A stretch of 58,654 nucleotides of DNA, counting the filler, from Basidiobolus ranarum (taxonomy: Eukaryota), in NCBI GenBank assembly GCA_040143965.1. It is 7 parts of 7 records of this genome, joined end to end, with 100 filler letters (N's around TTAATTAATTAA, not from the genome) between each part and the next. Parts side by side here need not be neighbours in the genome. Positions count along the whole stretch, not along the records: positions 1 to 8,321 come from JASJQH010007860.1; 6 more parts are not named here. One strand, 5' to 3'. This document shows positions 1-50,387 of this stretch, piece by piece (the first letter of the stretch is position 1; every line of letters begins with the position of its first letter). The position numbers were made by a program, and so were the translations under genes. Below the pieces are notes generated by a model. It had not been told where the DNA came from, searched no databases, and saw only the letters and a list, made by a program, of their open reading frames with translations.

Positions 1-279
1 ACACTATGTGTGGGATGACATGATTGGTTAGGTTTCATGGAATGTTCCAAAGAACATGACTTCCATATAAGGTAATCTGGATGAACTGACACCAGATTGC
101 CAAGAAGGGATGGCACAGTAGATTTGATGTCATAATCTAATAATAGAAGAGTTCCATATGCAGTGGATCAGTATGCCGAGATCAGAATCATGACAAGTAA
201 AGATTCAGAACTTAATCAAACTTATATATAATCTAATAGATTTATGTAGAAATATCAATTATTTCAATCATGAAACTAT

Positions 280-1710
280 TCAAATATGGCATAAGAGATT
301 TGGCCATATTGGATTTGATTATTTGAGCAATATGATCAACAATTGCCTAATTTCTGGAATTCAAATTAACCCCTGACCAAAACAGAAATTTGTGAGGGTT
401 GCATATATCAAAAACTAGCCAGGCAACTGTTCAAGAGCTCTGGTTTAATCAAATCTGTCAAAAATTTGGATCTAATTCATTCAGATTTATGTGGACCTAT
501 GCTAAATTTTTCTATAGGTGGAAAAAGATATTTAATCACATTTATTGATGATTATTCATGATACACTTAGGTCTACTTTATGGAAAGAAAAGAAGAAGCT
601 CTCTCTACCTTTAGAGATCTTAAAACACCTGTGGAGATTGAAACTGGAACTAAAATCAAGAAAATACATACTGATAATGGTGGAGAATAAACTTCTACAC
701 TATTTAAGCACTTTTGCAAAGTTCATGGAATTAAGCAAGAAGCTACTGCCCCCTATTCACCTCAACAAAATGGAGTTGCTGAAAGAGCTAACAGGACTAT
801 AATAGAAATGGCAGAATCTATAATAAATGCATAAAATTTTTCTCATAACTTTTGGGCAGAATCAGTTGCTACAGCTGTATAACTGAGGAATATTAGTTTG
901 ACTAGAAGTCTGTCTAACTCTACACCATATCAAGCTTGATTTGAAGTTAAACCTGATGCAAAACATTTGAGAATCTTTGGATGCATTGCTTATGTCAAAA
1001 TTGTGACCAAAAATTGGTCTCAATTTGATCCAAAAAGTTAGAAATGTATATTTCTGGGTTATTGTACTCAAACTAAGGCCTACAGACTCTATGATACCAA
1101 AATTTCATAGTAAATCAAGTCCAGGGATGTTATGGTTAACCAAAATGAAGATGTTTCACCCAAAATGACCTCACATGATGATGAAAATCAATTTTCTCCT
1201 GATTGAATCATTCAAATTGATTGAAACCAAAACAATGAGGAAAATAGCATTCCTGTGGATCCTTCTGTTGAAATTAGCATTGCCTGAATACCTATATAGT
1301 CATATATAGCTTAGTACTTAGTTATCTTATAATTCACTAGTATAGCAGTTTCACTAGAAGTCTATCTAACTCTACATAATATCAAGCTTGGTTTGGAGTT
1401 AAACCTGATGTAAAACATTTGAGGATCTTTGGATGCACTGCTTATATCAAAATTATGACCAAAAATTAGTCTAAATTTGATCCAAAAAGTAAGAAATGCC
1501 TATTTCTGGGTTATTGTACTCAAACTGAGGACTATAGACTCTATGGTACCAAAATTTCATAGTTAATCAAGTCCAGGGATGTTTTGTTCAATGAAAATGA
1601 AAAAATTGCACCCAAAATGACCTCAGATGATGATGAAAATCAATTTTCTCTTGATCCAATCATTCAAATTGATGCTAACCAAAACAATGAAGAAAGTAGT
1701 ATTCCTGTAA
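280..1710 (+). mobile_element. Degenerate Ty1/copia pol fragment (GAG-pre-integrase and integrase) with internal duplication
   Basis: Motifs IWHKRFGHIG (~284), LDLIHSDLCGP (~466), PQQNGVAERANRT (~760), KHLRIFGCIAY (~961) and FDPKS*KCIFLGY (~1024), with many stops and frameshifts. Segment ~901-1258 is repeated at ~1353-1708. Confidence 0.92.
1266..1340 (+). mobile_element. 5' fragment of copia LTR (same family as the contig 3 LTRs)
   Basis: TGTTGAAATTAGCATTGCCTGAATACCTATATAGTCATATATAGCTTAGTACTTAG closely matches the LTR start at 23928. Confidence 0.85.
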
Positions 1711-2357
1711 ATGAGCATGTTGATAGTCTTGCTATGTTTTAACTATGTTCTGCACTAACTTGAGTTGTATAATCTATGCAGGCACTACCCAAACAACAAA
1801 TGTATCTAATAATCATAATTTTAATTTGAAATAATTATGTGGCCAGATTGTATGGCTTCCTATTACATTTCAGTTTTTGTCAAGTAGGAGTGGGAAGAAC
1901 AGCAGTTACTAAATGGAAATTTAACTTATGTAGAGCTTATTTTGAGTATTTGTATCTGACATAGTACAGATGAGTTGGAAACTCAGATATATCACTTTTC
2001 AACAGCTTTTGGAATGGTCAAACTACTGAATATTTCACATTCAAAGGGCTTGTTATTGAAAACTCATGAATGTTTATAGTCGAATACTGCTGTATGTTCA
2101 CAGTGTCTGTTGTAAGACTGTTTGAATACACGCTTATATCATTCCCAAAAAGAAGTAGAATTATTAGGCATTGGGAAACTATTGATAGCTACTACAAAGA
2201 GTATCAAATCAAGTATCAAACCTCATACTAATCCATTTTAAATATGATTGTTGTGAACCAGCATTTAATGTTGAATGGCTCATGCAATTACTACATATAC
2301 GCATCTGTCTATTTTATCTACTATTCATACGGCCTGATAGTATGAACTCCTACTTTT

Positions 2358-2578
2358 CCTATTGTAATCCATATTACCAGGGTTAGGGTTAGGACTTCCA
2401 TATTACCAACTGACAACCTATATTGGTAATCCATATTATAAATCAACATCCTCTATTAGTGAGGTGCATTATCCATTAACCTCTGATATTAGTAACCTAC
2501 ATTATAAATCCACATCCTATACTAGTAATGCTCATTACGAATCAATATTCTATATTAGTAGTCCTCATTACTAATTGT
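2358..2578. repeat. Imperfect 33-bp minisatellite containing a short TTAGGG tract
   Basis: Consecutive units such as CCTATATTGGTAATCCATATTATAAATCAACAT / CCTCTATTAGTGAGGTGCATTATCCATTAACCT / CTGATATTAGTAACCTACATTATAAATCCACAT. AGGGTTAGGGTTAGG lies at 2379-2393. Confidence 0.7.
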
Positions 2579-3109
2579 TCGTCTCTAAATAGAAGGAGAC
2601 AGCAGCTTGCTCGATGTGCTGGTCAACGACGACTCTCTTATGGGCGACCGCCAGATTAAGGAAAAGCCATGAGAAGATTAAGACAAAGTAATCGTACTCA
2701 AATGCTTAACTCTTATTTGGAAAAATTAGAAATATCAGTTTCCGATTAATAAAATTATACTTTTAGATGGTTAGTGTTCGGTGCGACTGCTTCTGTATAC
2801 CGAAATCCAAGTTTGGATAAAAGTGGCTTTGAACCCAAATGGAGACCGATGCTTATTTTATTTTAGTAAACTACTCCTAAACCTTATTCCACGGGTTCCA
2901 TTTATATCTTACTAATGAGGTAATTGCTTCCTTTCTATATACCGATCTTTCCAAACATGGCTGGTAAACCCTGCTTTATACATTATGGGTTACGGCTAGC
3001 TGCAGATAAAATAATAATAATCAGCCGTGCACTTTCTATTAAAATAAGCCTGTTGACATTATTTTCCACCAGAAACTATTGCATCGTAAAACTCAAGAAA
3101 GAAAGAAAT

Positions 3110-5113
3110 ATGAGATATATAATTATTGGAGGTGTAGCCGGTGGAGCCACAGCAGCCGCCCGATTGAGAAGAGCAGATGAGATGGCTGAGATCATTTTGT
3201 TGGAGAAGGGTCCCCATATCTCTTATGCCAACTGTGGTTTACCATATTATATAGGCGGTGTCATTGCCGAACGTGGAAAGTTGCTGCTGCAGACTCCAGA
3301 ATCATTCGGCAAGCGTTTCCGTATTGACGTAAGGATAGAGAACGAAGTAATTGCCATTCATCCGGAGAATAAAAACCTGACTATCCGTAAGGCAAGTGGA
3401 GAGGAGTACAAAGAGACCTACGACAAACTTCTGTTGTCTCCAGGAGCCAATCCTGTGAAGCCACCATTGGAGGGTATCAATACAGAAGGCATTTTTACGC
3501 TACGTAATGTGGAAGATACCGACCATATCAAAGCCTATATTACTGAGAAGCAAGTGAAGCGCGCCGTTGTCGTGGGTGCAGGATTTATCGGACTGGAAAT
3601 GGCGGAGAACCTGCATCATGCCGGTGTGGCTGTTTCCGTAGTTGAGATGGGCAACCAGGTCATGGCTCCTATCGATTTTTCTATGGCAGCATACATTCAT
3701 CAACACTTAACACAAAAAGGCGTATCTCTATATCTGGAAGAAGGCGTCACCCACTTTCAGCGCACAGACAGTAGTATCACTGTTTTCCTGAAAAGTGGCA
3801 AGACTATTCCTGCCGATATGGTATTACTCTCTATTGGCGTGCGTCCAGCAACGGCACTGGCGCAACAAGCAGGCTTGAAGTTGGGAGAGACAGGTGGCAT
3901 CTGGGTAGATGAACACTTGGAAACCTCCCAAAAGGATATCTATGCAGTGGGTGATGCCATTGAATATCCTCATCCGTTGACCGGGAAACCATGGCTCAAC
4001 TATCTTGCGAATCCAGCTAATCGCCAAGGTCGTATCGTAGCCGATAACATGGTGTTTGGCAATACCGTCTCTTATGAAGGAGCTATCGGTACTTCCATTG
4101 CCAAAGTATTCGACATGACTGTAGCCTCTACGGGACTTGCAGCCAAGCGTTTGAAGCAATGGGACATGAAATATCGGAGTTCGGTAACTCACTCCTCTTC
4201 CCATGCTGGGTATTATCCGGATGCTTTACCTTTGACTCTGAAACTGACCTTTCACCCAGAGACCGGTAAGCTTTACGGTGCGCAATGTGTGGGCTACGAA
4301 GGTGTGGATAAGCGTATCGACCAGATAGCCGGACTTATTAAACATGGCGGGACCGTATACGACCTGATAGAAACGGAGCACACCTATGCTCCTCCTTTCT
4401 CATCTGCCAAAGATCCTATAGCCATTGGCGGCTATGTGGCTTCAAATATCATCAGCGGTGCCATGCCGGCTATTTCCTGGCGCGAACTCGTTGAAGAGAA
4501 AGACCAGGTGGTGATGTTCGATACCCGTACTGTCGGGGAATTTTCATTCGGTTCCATTCCGGGTGCCATCAATATCCCTGTGGATGAAATACGCGAACAT
4601 CTTGCTGAAATTCCGACGGATAAGCCTGTTATCCTATTCTGTGCCGTAGGACTGCGCGGCTATCTGGCTCAGCGCATTTTGATGGGACGCGGCTATCGTA
4701 ATGTACGCAATCTAATAGGCGGCTATAAGACCTATTCTACCAGTATAGCTCCAGTTCCGAAGCCCTCGACTGAGGTTATTTCACAGACATCAGCCTCTTC
4801 TTCGCAACCGGCCGCTACTTCCACAGAAGCGACTTCGGCTACCCCGAAGAAAGAGGTGTTGAAGATAAATGTCTGCGGACTGCAATGTCCCGGACCTGTT
4901 ATGCAGGTGAAGAAAGCGATGGATAGCATTGCTGCCGGTGAACGTGTGGAAATCGTAGCAACCGATGCAGGTATTGCCCGTGACGTTTCTGGCTGGTGTG
5001 ACGCTACGGGCAACAAACTGATTGAAAAGCATGAAGATAAAGGACGTTACACAGTGGTTCTTGAAAAAGGCGATTCTGTCACAAATTGTCCTTCCACTCC
5101 CACATTGAATTAG
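3110..5113 (+). CDS. cdr: Bacterial-type CoA-disulfide reductase / rhodanese / TusA(SirA) fusion, 667 aa (alternative upstream in-frame ATG at 2957)
   Basis: FAD motif IIGGVAGGATAA, redox Cys in SYANCGLPYY, NAD(P)H motif VVGAGFIGLE, IYAVGD, C-terminal YAPPFSS, rhodanese loop FCAVGLRG and TusA motif CGLQCPGP. Intronless and visibly more GC-rich than its flanks. Confidence 0.93.
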   Translation: MRYIIIGGVAGGATAAARLRRADEMAEIILLEKGPHISYANCGLPYYIGGVIAERGKLLLQTPESFGKRFRIDVRIENEVIAIHPENKNLTIRKASGEEYKETYDKLLLSPGANPVKPPLEGINTEGIFTLRNVEDTDHIKAYITEKQVKRAVVVGAGFIGLEMAENLHHAGVAVSVVEMGNQVMAPIDFSMAAYIHQHLTQKGVSLYLEEGVTHFQRTDSSITVFLKSGKTIPADMVLLSIGVRPATALAQQAGLKLGETGGIWVDEHLETSQKDIYAVGDAIEYPHPLTGKPWLNYLANPANRQGRIVADNMVFGNTVSYEGAIGTSIAKVFDMTVASTGLAAKRLKQWDMKYRSSVTHSSSHAGYYPDALPLTLKLTFHPETGKLYGAQCVGYEGVDKRIDQIAGLIKHGGTVYDLIETEHTYAPPFSSAKDPIAIGGYVASNIISGAMPAISWRELVEEKDQVVMFDTRTVGEFSFGSIPGAINIPVDEIREHLAEIPTDKPVILFCAVGLRGYLAQRILMGRGYRNVRNLIGGYKTYSTSIAPVPKPSTEVISQTSASSSQPAATSTEATSATPKKEVLKINVCGLQCPGPVMQVKKAMDSIAAGERVEIVATDAGIARDVSGWCDATGNKLIEKHEDKGRYTVVLEKGDSVTNCPSTPTLN

Positions 5114-5819
5114 ATGTACTTTGTTTTTTTCTTTATATACCCAAGTAAGGTTTATCACAAGAGGACAAAATAATTTTGAGAAGAAAATCACTATACACAA
5201 AATTTAACTGATTTAAAAAATAAATTTATACTCATTTTATTATGGCTTTTCAATTTAATATGCACATATAGAATACTATACTTTATTTACATTCCGAAGA
5301 ACTATGTGTTTTGTCTTGTACATATTATATTTCTAAATGCTTGTTTCACTAAACTGGAATTTTTCCTGTAACGCAGTTAGATATCATAGACTTATCCTAA
5401 CAAAACATTGAATCTTCCTGTAATACGGCCGAACAGTATGCAATATTTTTGTAGTGTGGTTCACAGGCAAGGAATTACCCTGTAACGCATCTAGAAAACT
5501 TGCAATTGCTCTTGAGCCCAGTCAAAAATTATGCAATTATCTGATAGTAGGATTTATCATGTGCATATTGAGACAAAACTAAGAATAATAAAAGAAACCA
5601 ATTCATGGTTCCAAACGGTATATCGATGAGCTTTCTCAGCAGTCAATGATTTTATCCAGTATTGTGTAGTCTCTCTCAGTCGGTTGACGAGAAAAGCGTA
5701 TTGATCAACCTATATTTCCAAGTAGGGAGTTATAATAGTCTTTTTATCCGTACACATGAATCAAACGCTGGCAAATATATGAGTGTTGAAATCAGCCAAT
5801 CGGCCACTATCTTACCTGC

Positions 5820-5869
5820 GTAGTATTCATGGGTAGTATTCATGGGTAGTATTTATGGGTAGTATTCAT
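5820..5869. repeat. 13-bp tandem repeat (GTAGTATTCATGG), ~4 copies
   Basis: gtagtattcatgg gtagtattcatgg gtagtatttatgg gtagtattcat. Confidence 0.85.
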
Positions 5870-6334
5870 ATTGCTTGAAGTAGAGAGCATTACCGAATGA
5901 TAGGAGTCAAGTTAACTGCCAAACTAGAATTATGACAATACTAGGCTATTCCATCAAACTAATATCTATTTACTAACTTATCTCCACATCCGTATCAAGC
6001 ACTTTCTGGATTAAACTGCAATACCCGTCAAATACTACGCAACAGGGGATACTTTTCTTACATCTACCATCATCCTAAACGCACACTTTAAGAGCCAACA
6101 AACTTCTAAATATATATGAATCAAGCTTGGTACACTGCCACAATGGCATATTAACGTGATGTTCACTCACCGTCAATACATTGTTTAGTATATAAATAAA
6201 ATTCACAGATTAATAATTCAACTACAGGTAATAAAAGTAACTATCCTTTATCAATTTTCATTCAAATTACTTACACTGGAATTTTGGTAATAAAAGTGAC
6301 CTTTGAAGCGTAACGTTCATGTACCAATTTCAAT

Positions 6335-6973
6335 ATGCAACTCGCCATCGCCTTGTTAGTTTCATCCACTGCTTTGATTTTAGTAATAGATGCAACACCT
6401 GTCAATTACTTTACCCCTGGAGCCAACGCACTCGCGACTACTCGCTATAGTGATAAGTCGTGTGAGCAGCACTTGGGGCCTTGTGAGCAAGGATCACAAA
6501 CGCGACAAGCTCCTTTATTTTTCGCAACTGAAAATTCTCAAACTCCAGTATTGAAGCAAGTATTCACTACTATCACCAGAAAACACGATAACCTCAATGC
6601 AGCTGAAGCTAAACGCAAGAAAAATATCAGTATTAAGTATTAAACTGGCCCCAGTGTTGAAATTGAAGGGGAGTTTACTAAATCGGCATCTGCAAAGCAA
6701 AGTGAATCAGATACTCCATTCGATTCGGGATATATCCCGAGTACACAGGAACTCTCCAATATACAAATGGAGTCAGAACAAAATAGACAGTTTGAAAACC
6801 CTACCGGAGATTACCAGTCAATAGAAACGACTGGCGGCCCAACTCAAAGTCAGCCCATTTTAATGGCAACCTATATTCAACCAGCAATTCGCCAACACCA
6901 ACGGTACAAGAAATACAGAAAATTCCGCCATAACTATCTCAAGCTCAGATATACCAGTGGCAAGAGATATTAA
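6335..6973 (+). pseudogene. Putative secreted protein interrupted by a single in-frame TAA (6641-6643)
   Basis: Signal-peptide-like start MQLAIALLVSSTALILVIDA. The same frame stays open after the TAA through ORF 6767-6973. TATAAA-like element near 6190. Confidence 0.5.
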
Positions 6974-8321
6974 CCTATAGCATTTACTTCACATCAACTT
7001 CTCTGAACCTTTAACCACATATTGTTAAGAATAAAAATTCCCCAACCAAAAGTGCTTTACCATGGATACAATTTCAATATGCCACATTTATATGAATTTT
7101 GAGTAGCGAACAGTTGAGCTGTGTTAGCGGGGCGTAAGTGTCATAGGAGGCGATATACAGTGCTCATCACGCATCAAGTGTTAATATTTGTTTATATGGT
7201 TTAGATTCAAAAATGAATACTTTCCATGTAGAATTTTTCATTATCAACATATCCTATTTCAAGACCAAACCTCAATCTTGACCAAGCTTCATAATCGTAT
7301 ATTTCCTAAAAAGCCCGCAATCAAGAAAACAAATGTTCAAACGCTTATATCTTACAAACTACACAGTGCAATATTACCAAATTTTAGGATTACAATTTGC
7401 CACTATTTACTTCTTATTAAGAATGACTTTAGCTCCCTGTCGTTTTACTTTTTTCATTTGTCAAATAGCAGATAATTAGTTTAGTTGTCAAAAAATTAAG
7501 ATTTGAATGCCGATAACCTCAAGGTAACATTATTTAGACAATATATGGCTGAATCTAGACCTAACATTATACAGACAATATATTGTTGAATCTATACTTA
7601 GTGTTCAGTTACTGTAGATGAGTTTCTAAGATATGCCGAATTGAAACGAAGCCATCACTAACAAAATTGATACTAAATTGTGGGTATAATTTTTTTATGT
7701 GGAATATAATACTAAGTAATGCGTACATCTCATCTATTACTTTAGTCTAATGAGCATTACTTTCTGGAGACTCTAGCTGAACGTCTTCGTAAGTGATAAT
7801 TGGCAATAGACTATTATTTTCAATAGTTACATTGTAACATCTTAATGGTAATCTAAGGGTTATATAAGTATATTGAAGCCCTTGTTCAAGATCAATCAAG
7901 TGAAGGTCATTGAGGAATCTGACATGGATAAGTGGTCAAAACCTGAGCAATACTAGCGAAAGTGCAAATAAATACAACATCAAGGGAGTATCAGTCTAAT
8001 CAAGCTCACAACGAATGAAGCGATTTAAACCAAAGTCAGACAGCGAATTAAACTTTTGGAAACTAACAATCTCCCTCACTATCATCTGCCGTTGGGGCTT
8101 TAATATGAACTAATTGAGTAAATATATTGAAGGAAATTTACTACCATATGATTATTCTGTTGAGTATTGGTTTATCGAAATTTTCAGTATATAAATTGGA
8201 TAATTGGGAAGAGGAAGGAGGCGGCGCATAGCGCTCACCTCCCACAAACAAAAATTTAACAGTCGAGACACCCCGAAGGATGTTCGCGTTAAGGACCCTG
8301 AGACGCTGTGCAATGCTCAAG

Positions 8322-8421
8322 NNNNNNNNNNNNNNNNNNNNNNNNNNNNNNNNNNNNNNNNNNNNTTAATTAATTAANNNNNNNNNNNNNNNNNNNNNNN
8401 NNNNNNNNNNNNNNNNNNNNN
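8322..8421. other. Artificial contig-joining linker (N44-TTAATTAATTAA-N44)
   Basis: The same 100-nt linker, with stops in all six frames, recurs at 16733-16832, 25139-25238, 33530-33629, 41915-42014 and 50288-50387. The segments it separates fall steadily in length (8321, 8311, 8306, 8291, 8285, 8273, 8267 nt), and genes are cut at the linkers. Confidence 0.98.
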
Positions 8422-8585
8422 AAGCTCTCAGGAACACCAAAAGAGATCTATCAGTCCAATTCAAGATGACCGATTTAGGCGAACTTATGTATTTTTTAGG
8501 TCTGCAGATCCATACAGATATATTGAGCAAATCTATCACTCTGAATCAATCTAAATACATCTCAGACATTCTCAGACGTTACAGA
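8422..8585 (+). mobile_element. Ty1/copia reverse transcriptase (RVT_2) fragment at contig start
   Basis: FKMTDLGELMYFLGLQI...ITLNQSKYISDILRRY is a typical copia RT segment. Confidence 0.85.
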
Positions 8586-9283
8586 CCGACTTTCTTAAAG
8601 TTTGTCTTTCCTGTACATATAAATCACTTGAACCCACTTGTTATTATGCTATATTATAACAGGCATGTCCTCTTCAGCTATTACTGACAACAACACTCGT
8701 ACAACAAGTACCCACTCTGAACAGGAATCGGAGCAAGTACCTGACGATCCGATGGACCTGGATGAAGAAAGTCCTACACCAGTTATACCTGAGTACGCAC
8801 TACGACGAAGAGGTGCAATGTCTATAGTGGACGGGTCCCTGCAAACATTTTTAGCCACTCGAGTATCCAGTGAAAAATAAGAAACTTTACAAAAGACCTT
8901 TTTTCGCTCATACTTATTTGTCTCCTTTCTGTATAGTGTCTTTATAACTTACCAACAACCTTTCGAATTCGTTACCCGTAGATAAAATCTATTTAAACGA
9001 AAGTTCATGTATCCACAATATTGTACCAGGATAACGTTTCTTGTATTCTTTCCCCTGGTAATATATAGTGGATTTTTATGGCGTTTATTTTCTCTTCTTG
9101 TTGGAATCATCCAACAACACTGGGAATATACTCATTCAAGATCGAACTTTTCAACAGGTACTTCTCTCTTCTACTTCGGAGGTCTTTCATAATGAAGCTT
9201 AAAAGAAACTCTCAGTATGGGTTAATGAAAAGCAGGCTTCTATTTATATACAATTGGATATTATCATTACGTGAGCTAAGAAC

Positions 9284-16732: not shown

Positions 16733-16832
16733 NNNNNNNNNNNNNNNNNNNNNNNNNNNNNNNNNNNNNNNNNNNNTTAATTAATTAANNNNNNNNNNNN
16801 NNNNNNNNNNNNNNNNNNNNNNNNNNNNNNNN

Positions 16833-25138: not shown

Positions 25139-25238
25139 NNNNNNNNNNNNNNNNNNNNNNNNNNNNNNNNNNNNNNNNNNNNTTAATTAATTAANNNNNN
25201 NNNNNNNNNNNNNNNNNNNNNNNNNNNNNNNNNNNNNN

Positions 25239-33529: not shown

Positions 33530-34268
33530 NNNNNNNNNNNNNNNNNNNNNNNNNNNNNNNNNNNNNNNNNNNNTTAATTAATTAANNNNNNNNNNNNNNN
33601 NNNNNNNNNNNNNNNNNNNNNNNNNNNNNATGGCTGAATTCAGCTGATTGCTGTGATGAAAGTTGAGGATAGATGGGGTCAAGAAAGACTTACCAACACT
33701 TTACCTGTTATGAAAGAGTAAGCTGGCGATGTACACTTACAGTGCCAAGGATGGATCCAAAACAAATGGCCATTGTAGGAATACAGTGTTATCGTGAAAC
33801 ATGTTTGGTTGGTCAATGTTAACAAATCATGTCAGTTAAGTTTATTTGATCTTTGGATTGTTGTAAATATCCTAGCCACCATCGCTTATGCCCCTACAGC
33901 CTCATACAAATATGTGGTTCCCTGTGTTCTAGTTAAGCCATTTTTGTATCCATAGTTACACGAGTATTTGCTAGGATCCAAAGACTTGACAGTAACGAAT
34001 ACCCATGGTTTTGGTAGGGAATACACTAATTGACTTGTAAATCTCACACTTTTTTGTAATTAATTCAGTATTCGTAATTACCTATAGCCGAGCACTGACA
34101 AATATAGCCTGGATTACCCCTGAATACGAGCTAAATAAAATACCCAAGTGTCTTGATTTGTTAGTTTAGCAATCGCGTCTTCTTTCAGTTTGCAATCTTC
34201 AAGGTAAAAACTCTTCCACACCATTGCATATATACCCTTCATATTTATCTAACTGTGTGGTGAAATAG

Positions 34269-41676: not shown

Positions 41677-42014
41677 TCTCAGAATAGCTCCTATTTAGGC
41701 AAGGCACGCATCTATAGTATTAATTTAAGTTATTTAATCATCCATGCAAGGCAATCATCATTCAATAAAGCCTTTCATAATAATTCATGTGAGTTCTGGT
41801 GAAAGCCCTGAATAACTGATAATGTCTATTGCCTCTGCACTATGGTGAATAGAGATCCGATAAAGCGTGGATTGTTGCTACCATCCCTTCAAACATAGGT
41901 GGCAACTAAAACATNNNNNNNNNNNNNNNNNNNNNNNNNNNNNNNNNNNNNNNNNNNNTTAATTAATTAANNNNNNNNNNNNNNNNNNNNNNNNNNNNNN
42001 NNNNNNNNNNNNNN

Positions 42015-45000
42015 TTATGATTTTCTCTCGAGGAAACCCGGTCTGCTGGATTTTTTCAATGTGACCTTGAATTTCTTTGAGATTGTTAGGGAAACTAAGC
42101 TTTAGCGGATCCGGATCATTGTACGCGTAATGCGGCATAAAAGAAAGATAGTCAACTATAAAAAAGAAAAAGATCAGTTCAGTTCAGTTATGATAAGGGA
42201 TGTGTATACTGATGGCAACTAGAAATGTCGACTTTCTATTTCTTTACTCTACGATACAGACTCTTCATCAACAGTTAGTTTTACATACCATTATCCGGTA
42301 GAAGACCTGCTTGACTAGGGATCGTACGCCAAAAGGAAGCTGTCGTGGCAGCTGACAGAGTCCAATTAACTCCTGATTGAGAATTGAATGAAGTCCGAAT
42401 ACTCTGTAGAAAAGTGATGAACTTATCAGTGTTTGTTTGGCTGGCATATTCCACATCCAATCCGTCGAATTTGTGCTTATGCATCATTGCTACCACAGAA
42501 CTTAGAAAGGTTTTTTGGGCGGCTGCGGAATGTACAACTTTGATAAAGTTCGCGGAGTCTTCATAGTATGCCCAACCACCAACTAAGAAGGAATAAAGCG
42601 ATTCAGTCAAATGGAGAAAGCAGAGGTAAAGAGGAGTTGATATACCTGAAAGTATCACTTTTAAATTCGGATTTTGGGTCTTCAATTGCTGTAACTTAAG
42701 AATTACACTGAGCGCGTTTTCATCGGGTAATTGAACAGAGCCATCAGTTTTCACAACCGCATACCCCGTATGCAGATGTGTCCACATGGAAGCTTTGATT
42801 GCCTCAACTGGGTACTTGTAACATTCACCAATAGGTGCCCTAAGTATACAAAGTTGTTGAGCAGTAATTCAAATGTGAAAGTTGTTAGGAAATTTCTAGA
42901 ACCATGTAAGATAATATCCAACACTGAATTTTCCCTGATCACAGAAGTCTCTTCCTACATCAATGTTTGGCACGGTCTTCAGGAAAAGTGACTTGTGGTC
43001 ATCAGTTGAAAGAGCATTCACTCCTTTAAGCGGGTCCTTTGAGTAGTCAAGAGTTTCAGAGTTAGTCCAGTTCACAAGGAGTGTATCTGCATTCGATGTC
43101 AAATGTTGATATCTAATGCCATGGGTAGAAAGTCTATCCCATCCCATCTGGAATATATTATCTGGAAAACTCGTTGTTCTATAATATGGCTCATAATCTT
43201 TGTATGAGCCTCCTTCAGCTAGCTGCTTTGTCATGATATTATGAAAATAAATGTTCTGTATTGAAAAGGAATATAGTTGGCATGGGTTAGCTGATAGAAT
43301 TGCTGTGAGCTCAAAATCAACGCTGCTCACCTGAGGGCCTGTGGCACCAGACCACTTCGAGGCTTTCTCGCCAGCACCCCACCATATAGGATACCAAGCT
43401 CCTTCTTCAGTATCGCCGCCTTCACCTCCACAATTGGCAGTACAGCGACCAGGAGCATGTCCAGCAGGGACTACAATTTTGTTAAGCTCAATCAAGTTAT
43501 ATCCTTCCCAGCCGCCATGAAGATTAAAATCGCAATCCATATCGTTTAAAATGGCAACGTTTCGAGAAGCTGTCCATTGAAATGTGAAATGACGAAGATT
43601 ACGGAGCGTATTATTTGAGTAGATACTGTCCCAGACTCTACTCCCTCTTAGATAGCCATTCCCTCCTTTTCCCTTGTTCCACGCTCCCTCTAGAAAATTG
43701 TTCTGAATTTGAATATTCTTCGCTACCTCGGTGACGATAGGATGGGAACCAGTCATGAATGTGCGAACATTACGAACCCAGCTGTTAGCGGCCCATTTGA
43801 ACACAATCCCGTGCATAGCATCAGCAGGAGAAAGATTACCATAATTATGAGTGGCACTCGAAGCATCTTGACCTGGAAGTGCCTGTGAGAGATAGAAATT
43901 CTCCAATCCAACACTTTCTACCATAGAAAGAGGCAATGCCTTAGTAAATGACACAGAATCATCCATGGCCTCTGATCCATCGGCAATACTGCTGGTATAG
44001 ACATCAAACTCGAGATCTCTATCCACTGTTACACTAAACTTATCAACACCAACAATTTTGAAAACATCCTGGAACATATATTGATTCTGGTAATATGCGG
44101 TAGTAGTCACTCCCCATTGGACGTAGTTGTTCTTCGAAGCGGGTACTCCAAGCCAAAGGTAACGACCAGGTTGATATTCGGTGATATCCACGTCTATATT
44201 CAATTGAATAGTACGCCCGCCTTTGAATCCTGCCTTTTGCAATGTTTGATCTACTAGAAAACCGCGATAAATTGCATTTTGTCGAGGACCATTTCCGGAG
44301 CCATCAGTTTTCCAATGAAAATTAACACTTCCTTCGAATAAATCTTTTCGATTGGCCGGAGCCGCGAGATGAGCTGCTTCAAATTTGAAGGCTACATCTC
44401 GCTTTTGAACTCGAAACGCCCCACGACCAGGCCAGATCCAGCCCCCTGTGGCTTTAACAGTACTTCTTTTGTTTCTGTGCTCAAACTTCATATTTTCCAA
44501 ATCCCATCGACTACCATCAGACGTTAAGGTGTCATAGCGAGTGTTCTCATCTGGAGTAAGTATGATCTTGGTAGATCCAGGTGAGTTTGGGTCATTACCC
44601 TTCCCCCGAATGATCAAGAAACTTGCATCCAAGTAAATCTGAGATGATAAATTAATTGTTCCTACAGGAGAATGTGTATATAGTTAATATATAAACCAAT
44701 AAAGAGGGGCGTAAAGTGCTGAAATGACTATACCAGATGGCAATTCAATCAAAGCAAAATTACTGTCCCCTCCGATATGAATGCTTTTGATATGATCAAT
44801 AGCTCCTTGAAGGCCATGTGTGTCGTCTACACCGTCATTTGGGATTACTTGAAATCTGCTCATCAGTTCTTCAGCTGTAATGCGATATCTGACCTTTGAA
44901 TCATCTGGTAATTCAGAGCGCCCTTCCAAATAGCCAGCTCTAGACCAATTTGGCAGTCCATAAATTTGTGATCGGCGATTGTCGTTGGTTAGCGTAACTA

Positions 45001-50287: not shown

Positions 50288-50387
50288 NNNNNNNNNNNNN
50301 NNNNNNNNNNNNNNNNNNNNNNNNNNNNNNNTTAATTAATTAANNNNNNNNNNNNNNNNNNNNNNNNNNNNNNNNNNNNNNNNNNNN

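Follow-up and report, generated by a model that had tools for sequence, protein, structure and literature searches.

Basidiobolus ranarum, a fungus that lives with gut bacteria, carries in its assembled genome an open reading frame (ORF) of bacterial appearance. This locus raises the question whether the gene belongs to the fungus or is a contaminant of its assembly, and, if it was truly acquired, whether it has been kept for a function and for which one. We analysed a window of 58,654 nucleotides from assembly GCA_040143965.1. The window is made of 7 records joined with 100 filler letters between the parts, which need not be neighbours in the genome; positions 1-8,321 are JASJQH010007860.1 and contain the gene. 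A first-pass annotation, made from the sequence alone, had described the gene as a fused coenzyme A (CoA)-disulfide reductase-rhodanese-TusA gene of bacterial origin embedded in fungal DNA. Our analysis indicates that a segment of Bacteroides DNA was probably transferred, and that the gene on it was retained under selection and encodes a predicted CoA-persulfide/polysulfide reductase. The transfer itself, from Bacteroides into the Basidiobolus lineage, is very likely genuine.

Bacterial transfer into Basidiobolus is already known as a kind of event. Tabima et al. 2020 reported a bacterial appearance in 2-5% of the gene models of Basidiobolus, donors including CFB/Bacteroidetes; the candidates are mostly intronless and similar in composition to host genes (PMC7466969). 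The words rhodanese, disulfide and sulfur have 0 occurrences in the main text of that paper, and in the accessible text of Ciach et al. 2024 Basidiobolus comes up only in passing (PMC11291939). The literature that we searched contained nothing linking Basidiobolus with rhodanese and nothing on CoA disulfide reductase in fungi together with horizontal gene transfer. The present locus belongs to the same phenomenon as the transfers of Tabima et al.; here relics of a donor neighbour gene and of the donor promoter are preserved as well. The gene, these donor relics and the domain-specific relaxation reported below appear not to be described in the literature searched.

Domain structure and active-site motifs

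The coordinates of the ORF and of its domains are collected in Table 1. The reading frame is free of stop codons from 2924 to 5113, and the ATG at 3110 is the counterpart of the bacterial start. In the intronless ORF of 667 aa, Pfam finds all the domains that the first-pass annotation had named. The flavoprotein part matches Pyr_redox_2 (aa 2-285, E 1e-63), Pyr_redox (E 2e-16) and Pyr_redox_dim (aa 331-432, E 9e-14). Both nucleotide-binding GxGxxG motifs are present, GGVAGG at aa 7-12 and GAGFIG at aa 156-161, and are aligned to the structures 3icr and 3nta. The rhodanese and TusA domains are separated by a low-complexity linker of about 40 residues, and the TusA domain also matches the TusA structures 1dcj and 3lvj (E 5e-10).

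The three catalytic cysteine motifs had been described as intact, and all of them were located. The redox Cys42 (codon 3233-3235) lies in SYANC (aa 38-42, nt 3221-3235), which aligns with SFANC of 3icr and 3nta. The active-site Cys511 of the rhodanese (codon 4640-4642) lies in the loop C-A-V-G-L-R of FCAVGLRG (aa 510-517, nt 4637-4660) and is aligned with the rhodanese cysteine of 3icr (CQLGMRG) and of 3nta (CQVGLRG). Cys593 (codon 4886-4888) lies in the CPGP motif of TusA (aa 593-596, nt 4886-4897).

An in-frame ATG at 2957 gives a possible N-terminal extension of 51 residues (window 2957-3109), which would run through the promoter relic described below. Ile, Leu, Lys and Arg are frequent in this stretch, and only two of its residues are acidic; if translated, it would be, for example, a conceivable targeting peptide. 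The gene model of the related fungus B. meristosporus starts at the bacterial Met, not at the upstream in-frame ATG.

Relatives and phylogeny

In a protein search 8000 candidates were scored, and the homologue figures given here are taken from the best 120 of these 8000. They are 82-91% identical to the window protein, and over the full length the identity to the four-domain enzymes of Bacteroides is 82-87%. A DsrE-family domain follows TusA in 118 of the 120 (proteins of about 811-830 aa), which bears out the statement of the first-pass annotation that the bacterial form carries a further DsrE-like domain at its C-terminus. The two homologues without it are a protein cut by the end of its 2039-nt contig and a protein of B. 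meristosporus CBS 931.73. The latter has 643 aa, is encoded on a contig of 195,544 nt, stands in NCBI under a generic name and is 86% identical by BLASTP; when it is aligned with the window protein, 569 of 640 columns are identical (88.9%). The presence of a homologue in a related fungus had been proposed as a check, and B. meristosporus indeed holds one with the same three domains. In the database protein with the top score, P0002 (961 aa), about 135 residues are duplicated internally, and its frame continues through the leader upstream. A fault of assembly or gene calling is the probable cause in this record.

The locus scan covered one genome per bacterial or archaeal species (185,579 species) and yielded 389 relatives, of which 80 loci were kept. 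All 80 are from Bacteroidales. Among these species representatives the top DNA identity was 80.2% over window positions 3079-5074, to Bacteroides sp. GD17. For the protein, the best match was 86% identical across the whole sequence, with 91% across a part of it. The first-pass annotation had named near-identity to a bacterium as a sign of contamination, and no such match was found.

Two trees were built. In the tree of 83 rows, five fragmentary loci (L022, L036, L039, L045 and L064) were left out. Its support values in the Shimodaira-Hasegawa-like approximate likelihood ratio test (SH-aLRT) are 99 for the pair of the window and B. meristosporus, 94 for the 24-row Bacteroides group in which this pair lies and 100 for the 47-row Bacteroidaceae group. 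The careful tree of 38 rows was rooted on Odoribacter, Alistipes, Tannerella and a Marinifilaceae bacterium, and gave 100/99 for the fungal pair, 97/95 for the enclosing Bacteroides group and 100/100 for the Bacteroidaceae group. A gut-bacterial donor and nesting in Bacteroidales had been expected; the gene nests inside Bacteroides in both trees.

Relics of the donor chromosome

The bacterial footprint extends beyond the gene and its leader. The first-pass annotation had placed the start of the segment at 3030, which must be corrected, as the footprint begins at about 2590 with two relics of a Bacteroides sigma-70 gene (relics A and B in Table 1). By blastn, relic A is 90% identical over 61 nt (E 7e-14) and relic B 85% identical over 108 nt (E 8e-24) to L043, the locus of Bacteroides sp. 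GD17. The sigma-70 gene of this donor locus (L043 149-1084) contains Sigma70 regions 1.2, 2, 3 and 4 by Pfam. About 160 nt were lost between relics A and B, and a 1-nt deletion in relic B shifts the frame, so the sigma-70 gene is dead. Matches to the sigma-70 relic occur in 31 of the 80 loci, every one a member of the Bacteroidaceae group of the tree, and this synteny supports the donor independently. The distance from the end of the sigma gene to the reductase ATG is 1845-2619 nt in these 31 donor loci, whereas it is 355 nt in the window. Between sigma-70 and reductase L043 has a small hypothetical gene and then a C11 peptidase gene; about 1.7 kb holding these two donor genes is gone from the window between the sigma-70 relic and the reductase. 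Searches by tblastn for relics of the donor C11 peptidase and 135-aa genes gave only chance-level matches in the window (E at least 0.56). One chance-level match was collinear (window 2771-2839, E 1.4) and was not counted.

Upstream of the ATG there is a relic of the donor's intergenic promoter. Low-stringency blastn aligns positions 2942-3080 with L043 2793-2947 (63% identity, E 3e-5), and the main blastn alignment begins at 3079, 31 nt before the ATG. A 26-nt deletion lies at about 3078/3079. The view that the leader is of bacterial origin holds, because the region from about 3040 to 3109 aligns with the Bacteroides intergenic region, including an inverted repeat. The "-7 box" that had been read in this leader survives by half: the remaining TTG is there, and the rest was lost in the 26-nt deletion that follows the inverted repeat. 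The donor form of this repeat, TTTCC-NNN-GGAAA with a 3-nt spacer, is matched in 63 of the 80 loci. In loci with at least 150 nt upstream of the ATG, the exact form of this repeat is present within 200 nt of it in 51 of 71, most commonly at a distance of 71 nt. The repeat relic at 3063-3075 may derive from the binding site of BmoR, a repressor of the MarR type, and is a candidate for its operator.

At the other end the gene is truncated soon after TusA, as had been stated, and the ORF ends in the linker that joins TusA to DsrE in the donor. No DsrE family was detected in the Pfam scan of the protein. A tblastn search of the window for relics of the donor DsrE-like part and of the MarR gene gave nothing convincing, the best match having E 1.5 and lying elsewhere. 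In L043 the MarR gene is located downstream at 5506-5862. Downstream of bmoR, Bacteroides sp. GD17 has several small ORFs (L043 5990-7840, minus strand). The sigma-70 relics, the promoter relic and the reductase are collinear with the donor, which suggests an integrated piece of Bacteroides core chromosome of at least about 4.3 kb.

Selection and uneven decay

The relics next to the gene allowed us to compare decay inside and outside the reading frame. Of the nucleotide columns without variation in 31 Bacteroides loci, 109 fall in the sigma relic and 694 in the coding sequence; the window departs from them at 7 and 4, respectively (p 1.5e-4). Change at bacterially invariant sites is thus about 11 times more frequent in the adjacent relic than in the coding sequence. 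Likewise, about 500 nt of relic and promoter contain at least 4 deletions, whereas the 2-kb coding sequence has zero frame-breaking changes. At the protein level, the two fungal proteins differ at 13 of the 347 columns that are invariant in 45 bacterial homologues vs 58 of the 293 variable columns (Fisher p 6e-11). When neutral decay was simulated at the rate of the relic (K = 0.064), 0.4-1.3% of the runs kept a stop-free frame; with K = 0.11 the share was at most 0.05%. The first-pass annotation had noticed that the frame was kept open; the invariant-site tests and the decay simulation indicate that this is due to selection and not to chance.

Constraint is not equal among the domains. Fungal changes at bacterially invariant columns amount to 3/267 in the flavoprotein core, 3/41 in the rhodanese domain and 9/39 in TusA. 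Compared with the rest of the protein (6/308), TusA has an odds ratio of 15 (p 3.5e-6). The differences between the two fungi follow the same order, with 28/445 in the core, 15/103 in rhodanese and 15/69 in TusA. TusA is therefore the fastest-changing domain in the fungal copies, whereas in bacteria it is as conserved as the core. The CPGP cysteine of TusA is kept in both fungi. Most simply, TusA would have been freed from constraint when its DsrE-like partner was lost. Since TusA lacks this partner and is drifting, it may be dispensable.

Predicted function

The protein was compared with enzymes of known structure. Residues 3-546 align with the CoA-disulfide reductase-rhodanese fusion (CoADR-RHD) of Bacillus anthracis (3icr, E 1.4e-174), with Npsr of Shewanella loihica (3nta, E 6e-158) and with the CoA-persulfide reductase (CoAPR) of Enterococcus faecalis (8a56, E 5e-150). 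Family members among the structure matches include NADH oxidases and peroxidases (NADH, reduced nicotinamide adenine dinucleotide). The three fusion enzymes have in common with the window protein the motifs for flavin adenine dinucleotide (FAD) and for NAD(P)H as well as both cysteines, that of the redox site and that of the rhodanese domain, and by our analysis they are the best model for its working. They end after the rhodanese domain, whereas the window protein adds the low-complexity linker and TusA, and its activity is predicted from sequence. The glutamate in VVEMG is aligned with the same residue in 3icr and 3nta. We take a glutamate of this type to go with a preference for NADH, and the NADH preference of the window protein is presumed on this basis.

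Published work shows what such enzymes do. CoAPR converts CoA persulfide to CoA and H2S and requires both cysteines; it is specific for CoA persulfide, and bound CoA is the arm that swings between its two active sites, which lie at a distance of about 27 Å from each other (PMC9405070). The same report describes inhibition of a CoA-using enzyme by CoA persulfide (PMC9405070). The Npsr of Archaeoglobus (AfNpsr) reduces persulfides and polysulfide but not CoA disulfide, prefers NADH and has a background NADH oxidase activity; its preference is described as consistent with that of the S. loihica enzyme (PMC7969121). In Bacteroides fragilis, BF638R_0572 encodes a four-domain oxidoreductase and lies in an operon with the MarR-type repressor gene bmoR. 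BmoR binds an inverted repeat in the BF638R_0572 promoter and represses that gene, and deletion of bmoR affects the thiol/disulfide balance under oxygen exposure (PMC6158253).

The BF638R_0572 family is the direct source of the fungal gene. The CoADR-like, rhodanese and TusA domains occur in the same order, DNA identity reaches 80%, and the leader and the inverted-repeat relic are retained upstream. In contrast to BF638R_0572, the window has neither the DsrE-like domain nor bmoR nor a functional bacterial promoter, and the host is a eukaryote. Homology from the structure matches, together with the published data on CoAPR, Npsr and BF638R_0572, leads us to propose an NADH-dependent CoA-persulfide/polysulfide reductase. 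We give this assignment an even chance of being correct.

In the proposed reaction, NADH would reduce FAD, and FAD would in turn reduce the mixed disulfide Cys42-S-S-CoA. Sulfane sulfur would be picked up by the rhodanese Cys511, carried to Cys42 by the bound CoA arm and released as H2S. In this way CoA persulfide and polysulfide could be cleared without oxygen, which would presumably be useful among sulfide-producing gut bacteria.

Origin, retention and alternative explanations

Taken together, our data make the following history likely. An ancestor shared by this fungus and B. meristosporus would have received at least about 4.3 kb of core Bacteroides chromosome into its nuclear genome. In the donor order, the segment would have comprised the sigma-70 gene, the small hypothetical gene, the C11 peptidase gene, the promoter and the first three domains of a BF638R_0572-type gene. 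Afterwards everything except the oxidoreductase frame would have decayed, and the 667-aa frame would have been kept by purifying selection.

Several points weigh against this history or limit it. The linkage of the gene to the host is that of the assembled sequence, and the bacterial promoter is damaged. A comparison of two further window genes was uninformative on synteny with B. meristosporus: in that fungus the orthologue of the C9-methyltransferase gene of the window is on a contig of 40,488 nt, the reductase being on the one of 195,544 nt, and the forkhead gene of the window has no clear orthologue (best match in B. ranarum 50% over 53% of the query, in B. meristosporus 63% over 33%). A single insertion is therefore claimed from the tree and from the DsrE loss common to both fungi. 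Among residues never seen in the 45 bacteria, 5 are shared by both fungi, 14 are found in the window only and 20 in B. meristosporus only; as only 5 are shared, the common fungal stem must be short. There is also no evident amelioration to the host composition when the 7 references agree (GC→AT 7/56, AT→GC 7/37). With 3 references the counts are 62/186 vs 26/134, so that the amelioration signal is weak and inconsistent. The ratio of nonsynonymous to synonymous divergence (dN/dS) is 0.045-0.069 against Bacteroides and 0.025-0.054 within pairs of Bacteroides, but the former says little on the fungal branch alone because dS is saturated (1.2-2.4). For the fungal branch, rough and imprecise dN/dS values of 0.1-0.2 overall and about 0.6 in TusA were obtained from the residues absent from bacteria (5 shared, 14 window-only), and they depend on a neutral rate of 0.06-0.15 taken from only 7/109 sites. 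As to function, the NCBIfam equivalog models for CoA-disulfide reductase, TIGR03385, NF010037 and NF007123, all score under their cut-offs (489.1 vs 578.8, 366.5 vs 394 and 360.9 vs 458 bits, respectively). By sequence, the protein is related to plain CoA-disulfide reductases but is not filed as one.

The source fungus lives with gut bacteria, the gene has no introns, and its CpG observed/expected ratio of about 0.91 is close to that of Bacteroides (0.99-1.20), all of which could be accounted for if a Bacteroides contaminant contig or chimeric reads had been joined to fungal sequence during assembly. However, the sigma-70 gene in two frameshifted pieces, the missing 1.7 kb, the 26-nt promoter deletion and the absence of the DsrE-like domain and bmoR make up a decay that is unlike any of the 80 Bacteroidales loci. 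The best DNA identity of 80.2%, found among representatives of 185,579 species, a sister three-domain protein in the independent assembly of B. meristosporus and the uninterrupted sequence as far as the copia remnant also speak against an artefact, which we consider extremely improbable. That sister protein might instead stem from a second event, with closely related, unsampled Bacteroides donors having given the gene to each fungal lineage separately. The short shared stem (5 shared vs 14 and 20 lineage-specific residues) and the uninformative comparison of synteny are compatible with this, the stop positions differ, that of B. meristosporus coming 6 residues sooner in the linker, and Basidiobolus has reportedly taken up many bacterial genes (PMC7466969). 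Two independent transfers are nevertheless very improbable. The fungal pair is monophyletic (100/99), both proteins lack a DsrE-like domain that is otherwise present in 118 of the 120 best homologues, and their identity of 88.9% is about that of a native gene (87%), as joint vertical descent predicts.

Granting the transfer, the gene could be a young relic that has not yet been broken and has no function in the fungus. The damaged donor promoter would be explained, the amount of change in TusA (15/69 residues between the two fungi) is nearly the rough neutral expectation, and the estimate of neutral divergence from 7/109 sites is low and imprecise. A dead gene is still improbable in view of the 11-fold excess of change in the relic at bacterially invariant sites, the count of at least 4 deletions there vs zero frame-breaking changes in the 2-kb coding sequence, and the avoidance of bacterially invariant columns by the fungal differences (p 6e-11). 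Moreover, the frame is open in two lineages, while the simulation gave at most 1.3% survival for one, and in the catalytic core only 3 of 267 invariant columns are changed in either fungus. A retained gene could have an activity other than persulfide reduction: a plain CoA-disulfide reductase serving as a CoA thiol buffer, an O2-scavenging NADH oxidase, or a TusA sulfur donor for cofactor or tRNA thiolation. CoA-disulfide reductase models are the top NCBIfam matches, although all scores are below the cut-offs. NADH oxidases and peroxidases occur in the family, AfNpsr has background NADH oxidase activity (PMC7969121), and bmoR deletion alters the thiol/disulfide balance under oxygen exposure (PMC6158253); yet the closest characterised rhodanese-fused enzymes favour persulfides or polysulfide (PMC9405070, PMC7969121), and the rhodanese cysteine, which CoAPR needs for persulfide turnover, is conserved. 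A role as sulfur donor agrees with the CPGP cysteine kept in both fungi but not with TusA being the least constrained domain. We regard such other activities as rather unlikely.

Reports of transfer into eukaryotes often meet the suspicion of contamination. In this case the broken relics beside a constrained ORF provide an internal control, which at a single locus covers integration, age and selection. If the transfer and retention of a CoA-persulfide/polysulfide reductase are correct, a gut fungus took oxygen-independent, reductive clearing of reactive sulfur in its CoA pool straight from Bacteroides core DNA. A CoA-based persulfide-clearing enzyme that is otherwise bacterial or archaeal would then be at work in a fungus of sulfide-rich vertebrate guts, suggesting how Basidiobolus handles reactive sulfur where the oxygen-requiring mitochondrial pathway is limited. 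It is possible, though doubtful, that the gene is the first eukaryotic CoA-persulfide/polysulfide reductase, trimmed to a minimal unit by loss of the DsrE entry domain and with TusA relaxed or re-purposed. The locus would also be a rare one in which decayed donor neighbours, the sigma-70 gene and the operator of the repressor, can still be read, so that fragment size and neutral time since transfer could be measured against the selected gene. It offers a natural experiment on the fate of the sulfur-relay domain TusA after loss of its partner DsrE. The main value of the locus lies in the readable donor context and the domain loss.

Composition and fungal surroundings

Table 1. Positions of the features discussed in the text, counted along the whole window
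Feature	Position	Strand	Basis or remark
gag-pre-integrase remnant, copia type	194-376	+	Pfam PF13976, E 8e-10
33-nt tandem repeat, about 4.5 copies	2402-2566	.	on the left side of the bacterial DNA; last copy stops 24 nt short of 2590
Relic A, Bacteroides RpoD-type sigma-70 gene	2590-2651	+	corresponds to L043 nt 787-847
Relic B, same sigma-70 gene, last ~80 nt and ~30 nt of spacer	2649-2754	+	corresponds to L043 1007-1114
Relic of Bacteroides intergenic promoter/operator and 5' leader	2942-3109	+	clear from ~3040, weak from 2942
Inverted-repeat relic	3063-3075	+	TTTCC-ACC-AGAAA vs donor TTTCC-NNN-GGAAA, one mismatch
Intronless ORF, 667 aa and stop	3110-5113	+	CoADR-like flavoprotein, rhodanese, TusA
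FAD/NAD(P)H-binding and dimerisation domains, aa 2-432	3113-4405	+	Pfam; alignment to 3icr and 3nta
Rhodanese domain, aa 463-543	4496-4738	+	Pfam, E 4e-15
TusA domain, aa 585-653	4862-5068	+	Pfam, E 2e-19
3' end of bacterial homology, in TusA-DsrE linker	5097-5113	+	homology ends ~5097-5110; TAG 5111-5113
RVT_2 (reverse-transcriptase) remnant	8424-8687	+	E 2e-6, under Pfam's cut-off

The sharp composition change noted at the first pass is real, though the contrast with long ORFs of the host is modest. In 200-nt windows the GC content is 0.34-0.385 at 2900-3199, 0.445-0.535 within the gene and 0.235-0.24 at 5100-5399. The gene as a whole has a GC content of 0.484 and a GC content at third codon positions (GC3) of 0.46, vs 0.38-0.44 and 0.33-0.46, respectively, in the long ORFs of the host. 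It is a mild outlier among these, so that much of the change is one between coding and AT-rich non-coding DNA. Foreign origin is not provable from composition by itself. For CpG, the observed/expected ratio of the gene is 0.90-0.91; the left flank has 0.27, the right flank 0.75 and the remainder of the window 0.70. The low value of the left flank (1-3109, with the copia remnant) is accompanied by a GpC ratio of 1.01, and is consistent with methylation-driven loss of CpG in an old transposon, the bacterial segment having been spared.

Positions 1-8321 contain no N run and have the copia gag-pre-integrase remnant inside, so in the assembly the gene is contiguous with eukaryotic repeat DNA; this agrees with the copia remnants that had been noted on its contig. 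On the plus strand between 7185 and 8321, 10 ORFs of at least 30 aa were searched for the other part of a copia element split by the insertion, and no reverse-transcriptase signal was seen. A target-site duplication or flanking repeats were looked for as an integration signature, and none was found.

Elsewhere the window encodes a forkhead factor, pieces of tyrosinase, a chitin-binding chitin deacetylase, a piece of a GH18 protein, two fasciclin proteins and a PHO80-type cyclin. Its sphingolipid C9-methyltransferase is 87% identical to that of B. meristosporus, the next best match being Mortierella with 67%. The surrounding DNA is fungal, as had been assumed, and of the Basidiobolus lineage, the methyltransferase being the one native gene tested that is closest to B. 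meristosporus. The candidate native gene that follows most closely on the right of the transferred DNA is an ORF of 109 codons at 6314-6643 (+). It has no Pfam match, and its Met-initiated part opens with a hydrophobic stretch like a signal peptide, so it is perhaps a small secreted protein.

Pairs of 44-N runs, 12 bases apart, are located at 8322-8421, 16733-16832, 25139-25238, 33530-33629, 41915-42014 and 50288-50387. Their regular spacing of about 8.4 kb suggests masking rather than assembly gaps.

An intronless ORF of 578 aa at 42896-44632 (-) lies directly upstream of the GH18 piece (42281-42787) on the same strand, and has no Pfam match at E up to 0.01. Its protein-language-model features resemble those of bacterial DUF4955 or pectate-lyase-like beta-helix proteins (score 0.96). 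The clusters that it resembles are 100% bacterial, with Bacteroidota as the commonest phylum. Judged by this model, the ORF may be a second bacterial-derived gene in the window.

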